Source: Escherichia coli (lineage in GTDB: Bacteria > Pseudomonadota > Gammaproteobacteria > Enterobacterales > Enterobacteriaceae). Taken from it: DNA of 64,000 nucleotides. The notes under the pieces are model-generated. The model did not search any database, was not told the DNA's origin, and saw only the letters and a list, made by a program, of their open reading frames with translations. The DNA is taken from NCBI GenBank assembly GCA_902500125.1, contig GCA_902500125.1_4132.1; one strand, 5' to 3'. The position numbers and the translations under genes were made by a program. Below are positions 17,424-27,816 of the stretch, piece by piece (within the stretch, counting starts at the first letter, position 1; each line of letters begins with the position of its first letter).

Positions 17424-18086
17424 ATGATGAAATCAAAATTAGGTTTGTTTTATAAAAACTATTTTGTTAAACAACGTAAATTTATAAAAAAATATTTCTC
17501 TGGCGAGAAGTCTAGTCCTATAATCTTTAAAAGACCAAGTTATAATACTTACTTAGCTGGTGCTAAACAGTCTAAGAAATTTATTACTCTTTTACATAAA
17601 AACAAAATTAAAGCTTCTTATGTTGAAACGAGAAGAAACTCATCAATAACTCCTGGTGATTTTATTGAGTACGGATGTTTCAATATTAAGTACAATGATA
17701 ATACATACTTTATGGATATTGATTGTAATACATCCAATCTTTTTAACATTGTAGTAAATCCATTAAAACAATATAATGTTTATGGTGATTCTATTATCAA
17801 ATTAATCAAAAACAAAGATAGCTTTGATTTTGAAATAAATGTTTTAGATGATAATTTTGACGAAGTACCAGTAAACCCTGAAATCTGTGATATTTTAAAC
17901 AGTTTAAAAGGTAGTACCTACACTATATCATCTGATTTAATGTTTCAGTACTCATTAATCCATAAAGATATTGAAAAGTATATTGAATGCTCCAAAATTT
18001 TGAATTATCTTTACGATGAATTTAAAAAGAGTTCTAAAATAACCGCATACACTTTGTACAATATTCCTAAAATGGTGAATCTTTGA
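17424..18086 (+). CDS. hypothetical protein (220 aa)
   Basis: Track ORF; GGAG RBS. Confidence 0.55.
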   Translation: MMKSKLGLFYKNYFVKQRKFIKKYFSGEKSSPIIFKRPSYNTYLAGAKQSKKFITLLHKNKIKASYVETRRNSSITPGDFIEYGCFNIKYNDNTYFMDIDCNTSNLFNIVVNPLKQYNVYGDSIIKLIKNKDSFDFEINVLDDNFDEVPVNPEICDILNSLKGSTYTISSDLMFQYSLIHKDIEKYIECSKILNYLYDEFKKSSKITAYTLYNIPKMVNL

Positions 18087-18490
18087 CAAATACAGTACTG
18101 GCAACTCCACCGTCTGTAACATATTGTCCAGTACTGTAAATTTGTATACCATCGGTTAAGTAAGTTCTGTATAAAGTTGCTGTAACATATACGTTATTCA
18201 TATTCATCTCTATTGGTAGTACACATTTGGTATAGGCTGAGACATCTGTTTGTGTACCTATACCTAATTGACCTGCGTTATCGCCTGTGTTATAACCAGT
18301 TGCGTAAACACCTAATGAAGTTATAATATGATTAGAAAAATATGAATAACCCAAACTCTTGAGATTCTCTACTGTACAACGTACCATCTGACATAAGGGC
18401 AAAAACTGTTGTATCAGATGAAGCTATTTTTGTTACAGAAGGTTGTATGTTCTGTTTTGATGATGTGATAATTCTTCGAAAGGGTAGCAT
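18067..18490 (-). pseudogene. truncated, frameshifted remnant of MLPF-tag family
   Basis: ATG at 18490 after GGAGGA encodes MLPFRRIITS.. then stops; family C-terminus (LGIGTQTDVS..TVFVKDSPF) continues in another frame. Confidence 0.5.
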
Positions 18491-18536
18491 TGTATCCTCC
18501 AAATGTAAATCGTTATTATATTTAGGACAAAAAAAT

Positions 18537-18555
18537 GCCAGTACAAAATACTGGC
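18537..18555 (-). terminator. terminator hairpin
   Basis: GCCAGTA-N-TACTGGC stem with T-run on minus strand. Confidence 0.55.
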
Positions 18556-18561
18556 TTTATT

Positions 18562-25452: not shown

Positions 25453-26580
25453 TCAAAAAGGTAAATCAATTTGCTTAGTAATAATAGTATCTAACGGTAT
25501 TGAACACAATGAGAAATTCTTTCCACCCGTATTTTTAGGATTATATCCATTCATCCATACATTATTACCTTCGTAAAATGTATTCCAGTATAAAGACCCA
25601 CTATATCGTGTATTCGAATTGAACGATGTAAAATTGAATTCTTGAAATGCTGTAAAATATGGAAGGGAACTTGAACTACTTCCCGTAAATGGGGTATGCC
25701 CAGTTGCTATTAGTTTGTTTGTATCTGCATTAATTAAAAATACAACACTAGTCGAATAGTCCAACGAATCAGGATGATATATATTACTCATATCACCTAT
25801 AGTAAAACCAACATCAAAAACTTTACTATGTGCACCACTACCAGCAAAAGTAGTTCCAGTTGCATATATTTTATTATCAGATGTTATCATTACAAAACCA
25901 ACACCAGAAACAAAACTGCATTTTATATCATAAGATATATCATCAAACAACGGAACAAATGTGGTTGCATCACCCGATGTTGCTTTAACTTGAAAGCTGT
26001 TATTTGAACCTGAACCATATACAGTTCCATCGTTTTTAATCTTAAACAATGTATCGCCAAGGTAACCGCCAAATATATTATCCACATTAGTGTCAAGTAC
26101 AGTCCACGCTGAAACATAATTTTTATGTCCTAAACCTAATGAACCACTTCGATTCCATCCTCTTCCATAAAGTGTTCCGTCTTTCATTAATATAAATGCT
26201 GTATAACCACATAACATTTTTTTAATTTGGGTAACATCTATACCAGTGAAATACACAGCCCAGTCAGTATATCCTTGTTGGAAAGTATTAGAATTCGTGA
26301 ATGCATATGTTGAACCTGAACCATATATTTTATCACCTTTAATAACAACGGAAAACGATCCTAACCATAAGTCATCAACTTCAGTTGTGATTTGTTGAAC
26401 TGCTCCTAACGATACAAACTGTGTACTTAAACCCGCATTATAGTTTGAATCTTCACCGTGTGCATATACAGTGCCATCTTGCATTAGAAACATTTCAAGA
26501 GTGTAACTAACAACACTTTTCTTTATATTATTAACTTCGATTATATTCCCATAATCAAACATTCTAACAAAAGGTAACAT
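25453..26580 (-). CDS. RCC1-like repeat protein with MLPF N-terminal tag
   Basis: Track ORF; MLPFVRMFDYGNI. Confidence 0.6.
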   Translation of the reverse strand: MLPFVRMFDYGNIIEVNNIKKSVVSYTLEMFLMQDGTVYAHGEDSNYNAGLSTQFVSLGAVQQITTEVDDLWLGSFSVVIKGDKIYGSGSTYAFTNSNTFQQGYTDWAVYFTGIDVTQIKKMLCGYTAFILMKDGTLYGRGWNRSGSLGLGHKNYVSAWTVLDTNVDNIFGGYLGDTLFKIKNDGTVYGSGSNNSFQVKATSGDATTFVPLFDDISYDIKCSFVSGVGFVMITSDNKIYATGTTFAGSGAHSKVFDVGFTIGDMSNIYHPDSLDYSTSVVFLINADTNKLIATGHTPFTGSSSSSLPYFTAFQEFNFTSFNSNTRYSGSLYWNTFYEGNNVWMNGYNPKNTGGKNFSLCSIPLDTIITKQIDLPF

Positions 26581-26622
26581 ATTTCCCTCCTTTATTCAAT
26601 ATACTATATTTAATCAAAAAAA

Positions 26623-26642
26623 GCCAGTACTCAAGTACTGGC
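26623..26642 (-). terminator. terminator hairpin
   Basis: GCCAGTAC-TCAA-GTACTGGC. Confidence 0.55.
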
Positions 26643-26649
26643 ATATCAA

Positions 26650-27816
26650 TTACGAAAAACGTGGATCATCAAGAACAAACACGGTACTACTTGGACCACC
26701 TTGTGTGGTGACAGCACTAGTACTGTAAAGAAAGTTACCATCTGTCATATAAGTTCTACGATTCGTACAAATAACTCTTACTTTATTCATATCGATATCA
26801 GGATTAGGTAATGGACATGAAGTATACACTGATACATCAGTACTTGTTCCTATTCCCAGCGTACCTTCATTTGTGGTTGAACCGCTATTCAACCCACTAG
26901 CATATATACCACTGCTTGTAATAACAAAAGTGGCGTAGAATGGAGAACCTTCACCTATATTTAATTTAGTTCCAGGTGGTTGTCTTGCCGCAGCAACCGC
27001 ACCATATGCTTTCCCACCAGATGTGGCAAGATTACCAAGAGCACCATACTGTTGTTGTCCACCATTATACACTGTGTTAGTGCCATCACTGTTAGTGTGG
27101 ATACCAATAGAATTATAGTTACTGTTGCTATATACTAAAGCGGCATTAGAAGTAACTGTATTTCGTGTATATACTTTATATTGTTGGGTAAAATTACCAC
27201 TAGTGGACGTACCCTGTACAGTTCCAGTGTAGTATATATATCCGTCTGTACCAATGAATGAGTGCATAACACTACCTGCAAAAATTTTTTCTGGAGTAAC
27301 ACCTGACGGTATTGTTGATTGTACAAATCTACCCACTACATTTGTTGTTGTATTATTTCCCAATTGACCGGAGTCACCATAACCACTTGACCATATGGTA
27401 TTGTTCTCAAGAAGAACACTAATTGATAATCTTGATAAAGCTATTTCTTTAACATCACTTTCTAATGTATCAAAAAATGAAGTACAATTTGTCCAAGTGT
27501 TCACTACGCTAGAACTAACACCAATTTGTTTATTATCACCAGAACTATAATAATTCCCATCATATGTTTGTATAAGTATAACAGAACCACCAACCCATAC
27601 TTTATCAACTGAACCAAACGTTCTTGTCCATGTGGTAACTATATCCCCGCTATTATTACCCAATCCAAAGCAACCACTACTATCTACGCCTCGTACATAT
27701 AAATCTCCTGAAGTCATCAGAACTGCACAGAATGATTGTGCACCTTTAACATCTTTAATTGGCTCTGGTTCAGGTGCAACATTTCCATAATCAAACATTC
27801 TTACAAAAGGTAACAT
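26650..27816 (-). CDS. RCC1-like repeat protein with MLPF N-terminal tag
   Basis: Track ORF; MLPFVRMFDYGNV; C-terminus homologous to remnant at 18067. Confidence 0.6.
   Translation of the reverse strand: MLPFVRMFDYGNVAPEPEPIKDVKGAQSFCAVLMTSGDLYVRGVDSSGCFGLGNNSGDIVTTWTRTFGSVDKVWVGGSVILIQTYDGNYYSSGDNKQIGVSSSVVNTWTNCTSFFDTLESDVKEIALSRLSISVLLENNTIWSSGYGDSGQLGNNTTTNVVGRFVQSTIPSGVTPEKIFAGSVMHSFIGTDGYIYYTGTVQGTSTSGNFTQQYKVYTRNTVTSNAALVYSNSNYNSIGIHTNSDGTNTVYNGGQQQYGALGNLATSGGKAYGAVAAARQPPGTKLNIGEGSPFYATFVITSSGIYASGLNSGSTTNEGTLGIGTSTDVSVYTSCPLPNPDIDMNKVRVICTNRRTYMTDGNFLYSTSAVTTQGGPSSTVFVLDDPRFS

Follow-up and report, generated by a model that had tools for sequence, protein, structure and literature searches.

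A conserved N-terminal peptide on diverse virion-associated proteins of Rak2-like jumbo phages: a candidate docking signal in a variable gene array

The DNA analyzed here, a 64,000-nucleotide stretch from Escherichia coli assembly GCA_902500125.1 (contig GCA_902500125.1_4132.1; hereafter the window), contains nine consecutive minus-strand genes, m1 to m9, that open with nearly the same peptide of the type MLPFxRMxKYGN (hereafter the tag). A first-pass annotation, made from the letters of the window and its open reading frames (ORFs), had suggested that this constant peptide is a shared targeting or anchoring signal on variable bodies. The present analysis agrees with that idea: the tag is conserved at the peptide level, heads at least six types of body, lies outside the modelled folds, and its bearers are enriched in four virion proteomes. 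We consider it likely, with considerable room for doubt, that the array is a late-expressed, recombining repertoire of ligand-binding modules which are put into virions via this common N-terminal docking peptide and are probably displayed on the particle surface.

The tag and the bodies behind it

Six-frame translation of the 64-kb window gives exactly nine copies of LPFxR[MI], all on the minus strand and each opening one of the consecutive ORFs (start codons at 27816, 26580, 25379, 24570, 23386, 22196, 21008, 19767 and 18490). The nine near-identical starts noticed in the first-pass annotation are thereby confirmed between 27816 and 18490, as is its count of seven intact genes, one frameshifted gene (m5, with a C inserted at 22606) and one remnant (m9, a stub plus a fragment). 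Six of the intact genes encode RCC1-like propellers and the seventh, m3, a non-RCC1 protein, while m5 encodes a propeller truncated by the 1-nt insertion.

18067-27816, minus: nine-gene cluster, all starts of the MLPFxRMxKYGN type
26650..27816, minus: m1, first gene of the array, 388 residues; tag MLPFVRMFDYGN and RCC1-like propeller (PF25390 E = 3.7e-16)
25453..26580, minus: m2, 375 residues; tag MLPFVRMFDYGN and RCC1-like propeller (PF13540 30.6 bits, cutoff 22)
24642..25379, minus: m3, 245 residues; tag MLPFGRMIKYGN and glycine-rich domain, not RCC1
23395..24570, minus: m4, 391 residues counted from MLPF; RCC1-like propeller (PF25390 E = 1.6e-31, PF00415 34.4 bits)
22577..23386, minus: m5, 269-residue truncated RCC1-like propeller, without own hairpin or promoter
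22197..22612, minus: m5 frameshift (inserted C at 22606) and out-of-frame C-terminal remainder, about 133 codons still open
21087..22196, minus: m6, 369 residues; tag and modelled seven-bladed RCC1-like propeller, without own leader box
19839..21008, minus: m7, 389 residues counted from MLPF; RCC1-like propeller
18562..19767, minus: m8, 401 residues; tag MLPFPRMIKYAN and RCC1-like propeller; ortholog of JP4_577
18067..18490, minus: m9 remnant; 52-residue stub MLPFRRIITSSK (18332-18490) and frameshifted C-terminal fragment (18067-18402)

Between members, 8-13 of 14 tag residues are identical (60-93%), whereas the bodies share only 20-39%, so that the uniformly high identity expected of recent whole-gene duplication is not seen. 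In a 20-sequence family alignment including database relatives, the invariant columns are M1, P3, F4, R6, Y10 and N12 together with just four glycines across the whole body; the tag thus holds the only invariant non-glycine positions of the family. Among 49 class-A tags from seven phages and three named genera, M1, L2, P3, F4 and Y10 are 100% conserved and N12 98%. The codons behind these residues vary synonymously (CCT/CCA, TTT/TTC, AGA/AGG/CGT, TAC/TAT, GGG/GGA/GGT/GGC and AAT/AAC), and the DNA upstream of tagged genes is unrelated from genus to genus. Across Rak2-like jumbo phages, selection acts on the tag as a peptide, which is conserved in three or more named genera and in several additional host groups.

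A tblastn search with the 22-residue tag returned 61 phage records, all of them Rak2-like jumbo phages of 310-386 kb with the tag in 1-15 places each, whose hosts are Escherichia (33), Salmonella (8), Erwinia (8), Yersinia (4), Cronobacter (2), Pectobacterium (2), Serratia (2), Klebsiella (1) and Xanthomonas (1). Rak2 and K64-1 were not among these 61 records. When a tag-only profile was compared with 1.84 billion representative proteins, 58 clusters matched at E ≤ 0.001, almost all from residue 1. The cellular RCC1 relatives examined carry no tag and often have N-termini of the signal-peptide or lipoprotein type. A second tag variant, MLPFPIISN, grades into the YGN variant and is limited to the same phage group. 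The m9 stub resembles MLPFPIISN(T/L) more closely than the YGN variant of the other eight members, and MLPFPIISN(T/L) heads RCC1 bodies in Serratia phage BF, Xanthomonas phage XbC2 and Yersinia and Erwinia phages.

The first-pass annotation had read the bodies as RCC1-type propellers from a repeat, [YW]xxGxNxxGxLGxG, about every 50 residues. The fold holds for the six intact propellers by profile and for m6 also by structure; it does not hold for m3. Matches to PF25390 (RCC1-like domain) were found in seven of the eight scored members with E = 1e-11 to 1.6e-31, all below that model's whole-domain cutoff of 150 bits, and RCC1 repeat models exceeded their curated cutoffs in m2, m4, m6 and m8, while m3 and the m9 fragment matched no RCC1 profile. 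Against the PDB, the family profile matched UVR8 (E = 6e-39), human RCC1 (3e-24), HERC1/2 and RPGR, so the best matches are the RCC1-like domains (RLDs) of UVR8 and HERC rather than RCC1 proper. Propeller modelling was applied to m6, for which AlphaFold2 (AF2) gave 27 strands in seven blades from about residue 20 onwards, with a predicted local distance difference test score (pLDDT) of 91.4 and a predicted template-modelling score of 0.89; Foldseek matched this model to UVR8 (4dnw, TM 0.80, E = 9e-23). The repeat, in contrast, fared poorly, since only two members contain the literal motif, one copy each, and a looser form appears 1-3 times per protein. Profile and structure, and not a regular visible repeat, thus establish the seven-bladed RCC1 fold.

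The glycine-rich m3 has no Pfam match; relatives of its body carry PF21722, and its sequence-profile search against the PDB gave no matches. Its AF2 model (overall pLDDT 92.9) is linked to tail fibers by fold comparison alone, with the Pam3 tail fiber and Bxb1 tail-tip proteins as counterparts, and the predicted fold matches that of external phage tail appendages (fibers, tail-tip). Most relatives of this body outside jumbo phages have another conserved N-terminus, M[LI]E[LMTA][LIM].. (e.g., MLELLAVSGTKP). An 82-kb metagenomic phage contig (7879-9746) encodes two tandem glycine-rich paralogs and a third gene, all with M[LI]E-type starts, immediately before the genes for terminase, portal, protease and capsid, while the PVP-SE1 homolog is solitary and lies in a replication region. 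The start M[LI]E[LMT][LIM] may be a lineage-specific alternative tag, although these observations are suggestive only.

The tagged genes of CBB, BF, GAP32 and XbC2 are grouped in operon-like clusters, and their bodies include Kelch propellers, an RCC1 plus Kelch double propeller, LamG/Laminin_G_3 domains, RCC1 and families of about 210 residues without an assigned fold; altogether the tag heads at least six unrelated body types. The members are not basic (isoelectric point, pI, 4.9-9.3), with bodies of 24-43 kDa. In the AF2 models, residues 1-10 have a pLDDT of about 50 (m6) and 52 (m3) and a confident fold begins near residue 20, so the tag, which is strictly N-terminal, is predicted to be a low-confidence appendage outside both the RCC1-like and the glycine-rich m3 fold, joined to the body by a linker that is short and, in many members, Pro-rich. 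No conserved Glu or protease site was found after the tag: among 49 tags, position 9 is occupied by K28/Q8/E7/D2/N2/R1, and in several members the first 24 residues contain no Glu at all.

The tag is partly hidden by annotation. Owing to an in-frame ATG inside the leader (ATGAATAAAGGAGG), the ORF calls for m4 (from 24588) and m7 begin too early, and the N-terminal tag is masked in database entries such as JP4_581 and phAPEC6 gp002, which have the same fault. The early-start stretches cover 24571-24588 (m4) and 21009-21074 (m7), and database starts read MNKGGNMLPF.... In phAPEC6, a tagged glycine-rich gene (244 residues, MLPFGRMVKYGNKIEYK...) between gp003 and gp005 is unannotated; the listed gp004 (VVQSLVVVLV...) is a 100-residue alternative-frame ORF inside it, and the same spurious ORF lies at 24683-24991 of the window.

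Virion association and late-type leaders

The structural proteome of phAPEC6 lists gp003, 005, 006, 007, 009, 010, 549 and 551 (PMC7247149, Table 1), and all eight map to tagged cluster members, including the truncated 30-kDa ortholog of m5. In that phage, 8 of 10 tagged proteins were detected compared with 54 of 541 others (Fisher P = 6.3e-7). In CBB, seven of nine tagged proteins were detected by mass spectrometry (MS), namely CBB_536, 537, 548, 549, 551, 552 and 553 (PMC5259590). GAP32 gp001 was likewise MS-detected, RefSeq labels GAP32_002 'virion structural protein', and the JP4 virion dataset includes JP4_577 (the m8 ortholog), 581 and 582 (PMC12648861, supplement 2). Two further tagged, MS-detected structural proteins of CBB, gp442 and gp443 (10369-11690), are encoded in a separate minus-strand islet beside an HNH endonuclease gene, with annotations that liken their bodies to a protein of 'Salmonella phage 19'. 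The main cluster is thus not the only place for tagged cassettes, and those of the islet have possibly moved with the homing endonuclease.

The first-pass annotation did not recognize the cluster as a described phage module, which needs narrowing. The RCC1 cluster is annotated in GenBank, and papers on phAPEC6 and CBB have described it as virion-associated (PMC7247149, PMC5259590). Neither the gene family nor its presence in virions is therefore new; only the tag and the cassette logic appear undescribed. As far as we searched, this comprises the 12-residue tag across unrelated folds and genera, its link to virions, the late-promoter cassette and the hairpin joints described below. The shared N-terminus is unmentioned in the proteome literature on phAPEC6, CBB, GAP32 and JP4 and in a 2026 jumbo-phage review, and in the literature on RCC1-type proteins of Asteriusvirus/Rak2-like jumbo phages we found no tag description and no localization.

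Upstream of the tagged genes, a 26-nt leader box, AAATATAGTATAATGAATAAAGGAGG, occurs six times in the window at ≤3 mismatches, always within the cluster, while shuffled sequences are expected to contain none. Six spacers carry a hairpin of the form GCCAGTAC-loop-GTACTGGC followed by a T-run. The shared leader and hairpin of the first-pass annotation are therefore genuine, with the following positions.

27822..27847, minus: m1 leader box (gGTAAATAtgaTATAATgaatAAAGGAGG), late-type TAAATA core at -32, strong Shine-Dalgarno
26586..26611, minus: m2 leader box
25385..25410, minus: m3 leader box
24575..24600, minus: m4 leader box
21013..21038, minus: m7 leader box
19773..19798, minus: m8 leader box
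26623..26642, minus: m1/m2 spacer terminator hairpin (GCCAGTAC-loop-GTACTGGC and T-run)
25427..25445, minus: m2/m3 spacer terminator hairpin
24614..24636, minus: m3/m4 spacer terminator hairpin
21054..21072, minus: m6/m7 spacer terminator hairpin, recombination joint in 121Q
19813..19831, minus: m7/m8 spacer terminator hairpin, recombination joint in phAPEC6
18537..18555, minus: m8/m9 spacer terminator hairpin, right-hand partner in the 121Q and phAPEC6 joints

A promoter and terminator of its own, as the first-pass annotation had claimed for each gene, applies to about six of the nine, because hairpin and leader box are both missing from m5 and m6 (only 8 nt separate m4 and m5), and m1 has a leader box but no upstream hairpin.

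The promoter element proposed at first, a TATAAT in the leader, was not upheld. A sigma-70 reading of it was rejected: it has no -35 element, a promoter scan found 55 sites compared with 53 expected and did not call the leaders, and TATAAT is not kept from genus to genus. What is kept is TAAATA, present at -31 to -34 from the ATG in seven of seven leaders. Its form is (G)GTAAATA(C/T) ahead of m1 in the window and of the tagged genes in CBB, BF, GAP32 and XbC2, the remaining window leaders carrying TTAAATAT. In phAPEC6, TAAATA also lies upstream of 14 out of 18 structural genes (major capsid protein, scaffold, protease, baseplate wedge and others; binomial P ≤ 3e-5) and is missing ahead of the sigma-70-type or non-structural genes inspected there. 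Since structural genes share the core, the CBB authors named ATAAATA as the putative late motif (PMC5259590), and a gp55-like late sigma factor is present in the phage genome, the cluster is most likely late-transcribed.

Variation of the array and its surroundings

By its sequence matches, the DNA is that of an Asteriusvirus-type (121Q/PBECO4-like) jumbo coliphage. The only matches of a megablast search with 18000-28000 were jumbo phages of Escherichia and Salmonella, 347-383 kb long (121Q, PBECO4, G17, Sharanji, phAPEC6 and JP4), which belong to Asteriusvirus wherever classified; the matches were mosaic, with ≤52% coverage at 93-97% identity. The matched genes are labelled 'regulator of chromosome condensation' or 'putative DNA condensation protein', so that the RCC1-type annotation is already public, and the counterpart cluster of 121Q comprises gp234-247 or is larger.

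Comparison with 121Q and phAPEC6 revealed that m3-m7 and m9 have orthologs of 87-100% identity in the same order, apart from m7, which is missing from 121Q. By contrast, m1, m2 and m8 have no close ortholog in either phage (≤39%), m8 itself being absent from both. The phAPEC6 spacer between m7 and m9 is identical to the window m7/m8 spacer as far as the first arm of the hairpin and to the window m8/m9 spacer from the second arm onwards, and the m6/m9 spacer of 121Q switches partners inside the hairpin loop in the same way. These chimeric spacers, two independent junctions that both break in the hairpin and not in the tag, indicate that the hairpin serves as a recombination joint. The array is hypervariable, its repertoire differing between near-identical phages.

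The insertion in m5 is a single C within the blade motif GSQNS-GQLGNG, at an identical site in 121Q and phAPEC6. The frameshifted product has exactly 269 residues in three phages, and its phAPEC6 ortholog gp007 was MS-detected in virions, which leaves two options, a very recent frameshift or a truncated form that the phage tolerates or uses. Programmed frameshifting was considered and found unsupported, as a slippery heptamer is absent and a simple 1-nt insertion suffices. At the other end of the array, the m9 C-terminal fragment is 52% identical to residues 290-385 of m1, and the 3′ end of m9 overlaps a convergent gene (17424-18086) by 20 nt.

Right beside the cluster, at 27920-32114 on the plus strand, some 20 short paralogous ORFs (59-84 residues) stand in tandem. 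The encoded proteins begin with M(N/H)KE(H)KEFY... or MN..QYY.. and frequently end with ...LLI(Y/F)RY or ...LKLISM; in relatives of the phage, this second expanded family is labelled as hypothetical proteins only. A sigma-70-like promoter (TTGACA-17-TACTAT, 27866-27894, plus) reads rightward into these small ORFs, in divergent orientation to the m1 leader (27822-27848, minus), which makes the cluster a late-type minus-strand island between early-type plus-strand arrays.

Proposed docking and competing explanations

The mechanism we favor starts from a cassette whose product consists of the 12-residue tag MLPFxRMxKYGN, a short and often Pro-rich linker and an interchangeable ligand-binding domain; in its full form the cassette also carries a strong Shine-Dalgarno sequence, a promoter with the T4-late-like TAAATA core and the hairpin that serves as terminator. 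The tag would act as an incorporation signal that is read by one common, putative virion component during late assembly, so that any body behind it may be mounted on the particle. External display on the tail, baseplate, 'hair' or capsid surface seems the better choice, as the m3 fold is of the tail-fiber or tail-tip kind and LamG, Kelch and RCC1 are ligand-binding folds, and as the proteins are non-basic, lack a protease site after the tag and have a tether-like design of tag, linker and globule. The array would then be an auxiliary-adhesin repertoire that varies between closely related phages, with cassettes gained and lost through recombination inside the hairpin. The broader proposal that MLPFxRMxKYGN is a portable, lineage-wide virion-incorporation 'address label' of Rak2-like jumbo phages, by which any ligand-binding domain on a hairpin-swapped cassette is mounted on a common docking site, we regard as plausible and as open to failure as to success.

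Several points weigh against the docking reading. The link from tag to virion is correlative, and MS coverage in phAPEC6 and JP4 is low, with 1-5 peptides. The argument for external display draws on fold analogies, mainly on that of one member, m3. The Rak2/K64-1 lineage apparently lacks the tag, which would make it dispensable for virion assembly in the wider group. Furthermore, the tagged genes of one genome have almost the same DNA sequence in the leader and first 12 codons, and concerted evolution therefore contributes to the tag identity seen within a genome.

The capsid-targeting sequence (CTS) of phage T4 reads MKTYQEFIAE. If the tag worked like it, binding the prohead core or inner capsid, the proteins would be packaged in the head and ejected with the DNA as anti-defence or host-takeover effectors; we find this rather unlikely, but a possibility to be taken seriously. 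The likeness to the CTS/internal-protein (IP) locus of T-even phages (PMC3012670) is considerable: both have an N-terminal peptide of about 10-12 residues on otherwise unrelated proteins, bearers in the virion, expression with head or virion genes (the window genes look late-expressed) and a locus that varies between close relatives. In addition, the phage has a T4-type prohead core scaffold and protease besides its late sigma factor, and the phAPEC6 authors speculated on an intracapsid role (PMC7247149). However, the tag has no sequence similarity to the T4 CTS and is not followed by a conserved Glu or cleavage motif, and the rigid β-propeller or lectin-like bodies of 24-43 kDa with their pI of 4.9-9.3 differ from the small, basic T4 IPs, which reside in the head, a location that is putative for the window proteins. 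The resemblance of m3 to external fiber and spike proteins also argues against packaging, and lectin-type LamG and Kelch domains would be atypical cargo in a DNA-filled head.

It is improbable, in our judgement, that the 5′ identity is a by-product of DNA-level processes, be it gene conversion or recombination at the cassette or a constraint on translation initiation, with the bodies themselves carrying the proteins into virions. Such processes have a precedent in the PeSL (early promoter and stem-loop) cassettes of T4-type phages, where terminator hairpin and promoter lie between genes and indel joints between sister phages fall within the cassette (PMC2839356, PMC4122927). Six window spacers have the same layout of stem-loop terminator and promoter between variable genes, the sister-phage joints map to the cassette, and the leader with the first 12 nt of the ORF is almost invariant in the window genome. 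The window cassette differs in its late-type TAAATA promoter in place of a sigma-70 early one, in its coupling to a conserved coding tag and in its restriction to one gene family, whereas PeSLs are spread across hyperplastic regions. Nevertheless, the peptide is kept across genera despite unrelated upstream DNA and with synonymous codons at invariant residues, m5 and m6 retain the tag without the cassette, the breakpoints lie in the hairpin and not in the tag, and each unrelated fold would need an independent way into the virion.

The database label could be taken at face value, in which case the proteins would condense DNA, organizing the 350-kb genome in the capsid or acting on host DNA. GenBank and PHROG names, the true homology to the RCC1 fold and the speculation in PMC7247149 speak for it, but we think it very improbable. 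The name is inherited from eukaryotic RCC1, a chromatin role is not inherent in the fold, and the best matches are the RLDs of UVR8 and HERC. Moreover, the members are not basic, the same tag and locus carry Kelch, LamG and glycine-rich fiber-like bodies, and the variation of copy number and content between sister phages would be unexpected for an essential genome-packing component. Nor is there much chance that the peptide is an intrinsic propeller element or folding aid. In many β-propellers an N-terminal 'velcro' strand closes the last blade and with it the ring; here, the AF2 propeller starts near residue 20 with the tag at a pLDDT of about 50, non-propeller folds (m3, LamG, the families of about 210 residues) are tagged too, and cellular RCC1 relatives have no tag. 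On the AF2 models and the tagged non-propeller bodies, the velcro strand was rejected.

For the docking reading, known systems offer partial parallels. The bodies resemble the RLD propellers of UVR8, HERC1/2, RPGR and RCC1 (profile E = 6e-39, TM 0.80 to UVR8, seven blades in the AF2 model) but share 15-22% identity with them and have just 1-3 blades with a recognizable signature; they belong to phage virions and have an extra N-terminal tag, and guanine-nucleotide-exchange or chromatin activity attaches to them only by name. Receptor-binding proteins with N-terminal anchors and swappable C-terminal domains occur in multi-tailspike phages such as CBA120 and in the branched fibers of Rak2 and phiKp24, where the anchors are folded, usually trimeric and tens to hundreds of residues long, and the repertoire tracks host range. 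A conserved N-terminus, a variable distal binding domain and several paralogs per genome are common to both systems; the constant part in the window, however, is about 12 low-pLDDT residues and a linker, the bodies are predicted to be globular monomers, and Rak2 and K64-1 themselves apparently lack a tag of this type. In encapsulins, a short cargo-loading peptide on a flexible linker, usually C-terminal, brings diverse cargo to an HK97-fold shell; the architecture of peptide, linker and body is alike, while the window tag is N-terminal and unrelated in sequence.

If the docking reading is correct, it would account for up to 15 'RCC1' genes per jumbo phage that are now mislabelled as DNA-condensation proteins, and a simple rule would follow, in which a start of the form MLPF...YGN predicts a virion protein whatever its fold. 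With the hairpin joints, modular shuffling of the PeSL type reaches beyond the classical T4-like phages to a family of late, structural genes. A tag that proves sufficient would provide a ready 12-residue label to display or package foreign proteins on a 350-kb phage. The array would then represent a new plug-and-play system of accessory adhesins, or of effector delivery, usable for phage display and engineering, and it would offer a concrete, testable way into the recruitment of accessory proteins to very large virions and into what determines the host range of Asteriusvirus-type therapeutic candidates.

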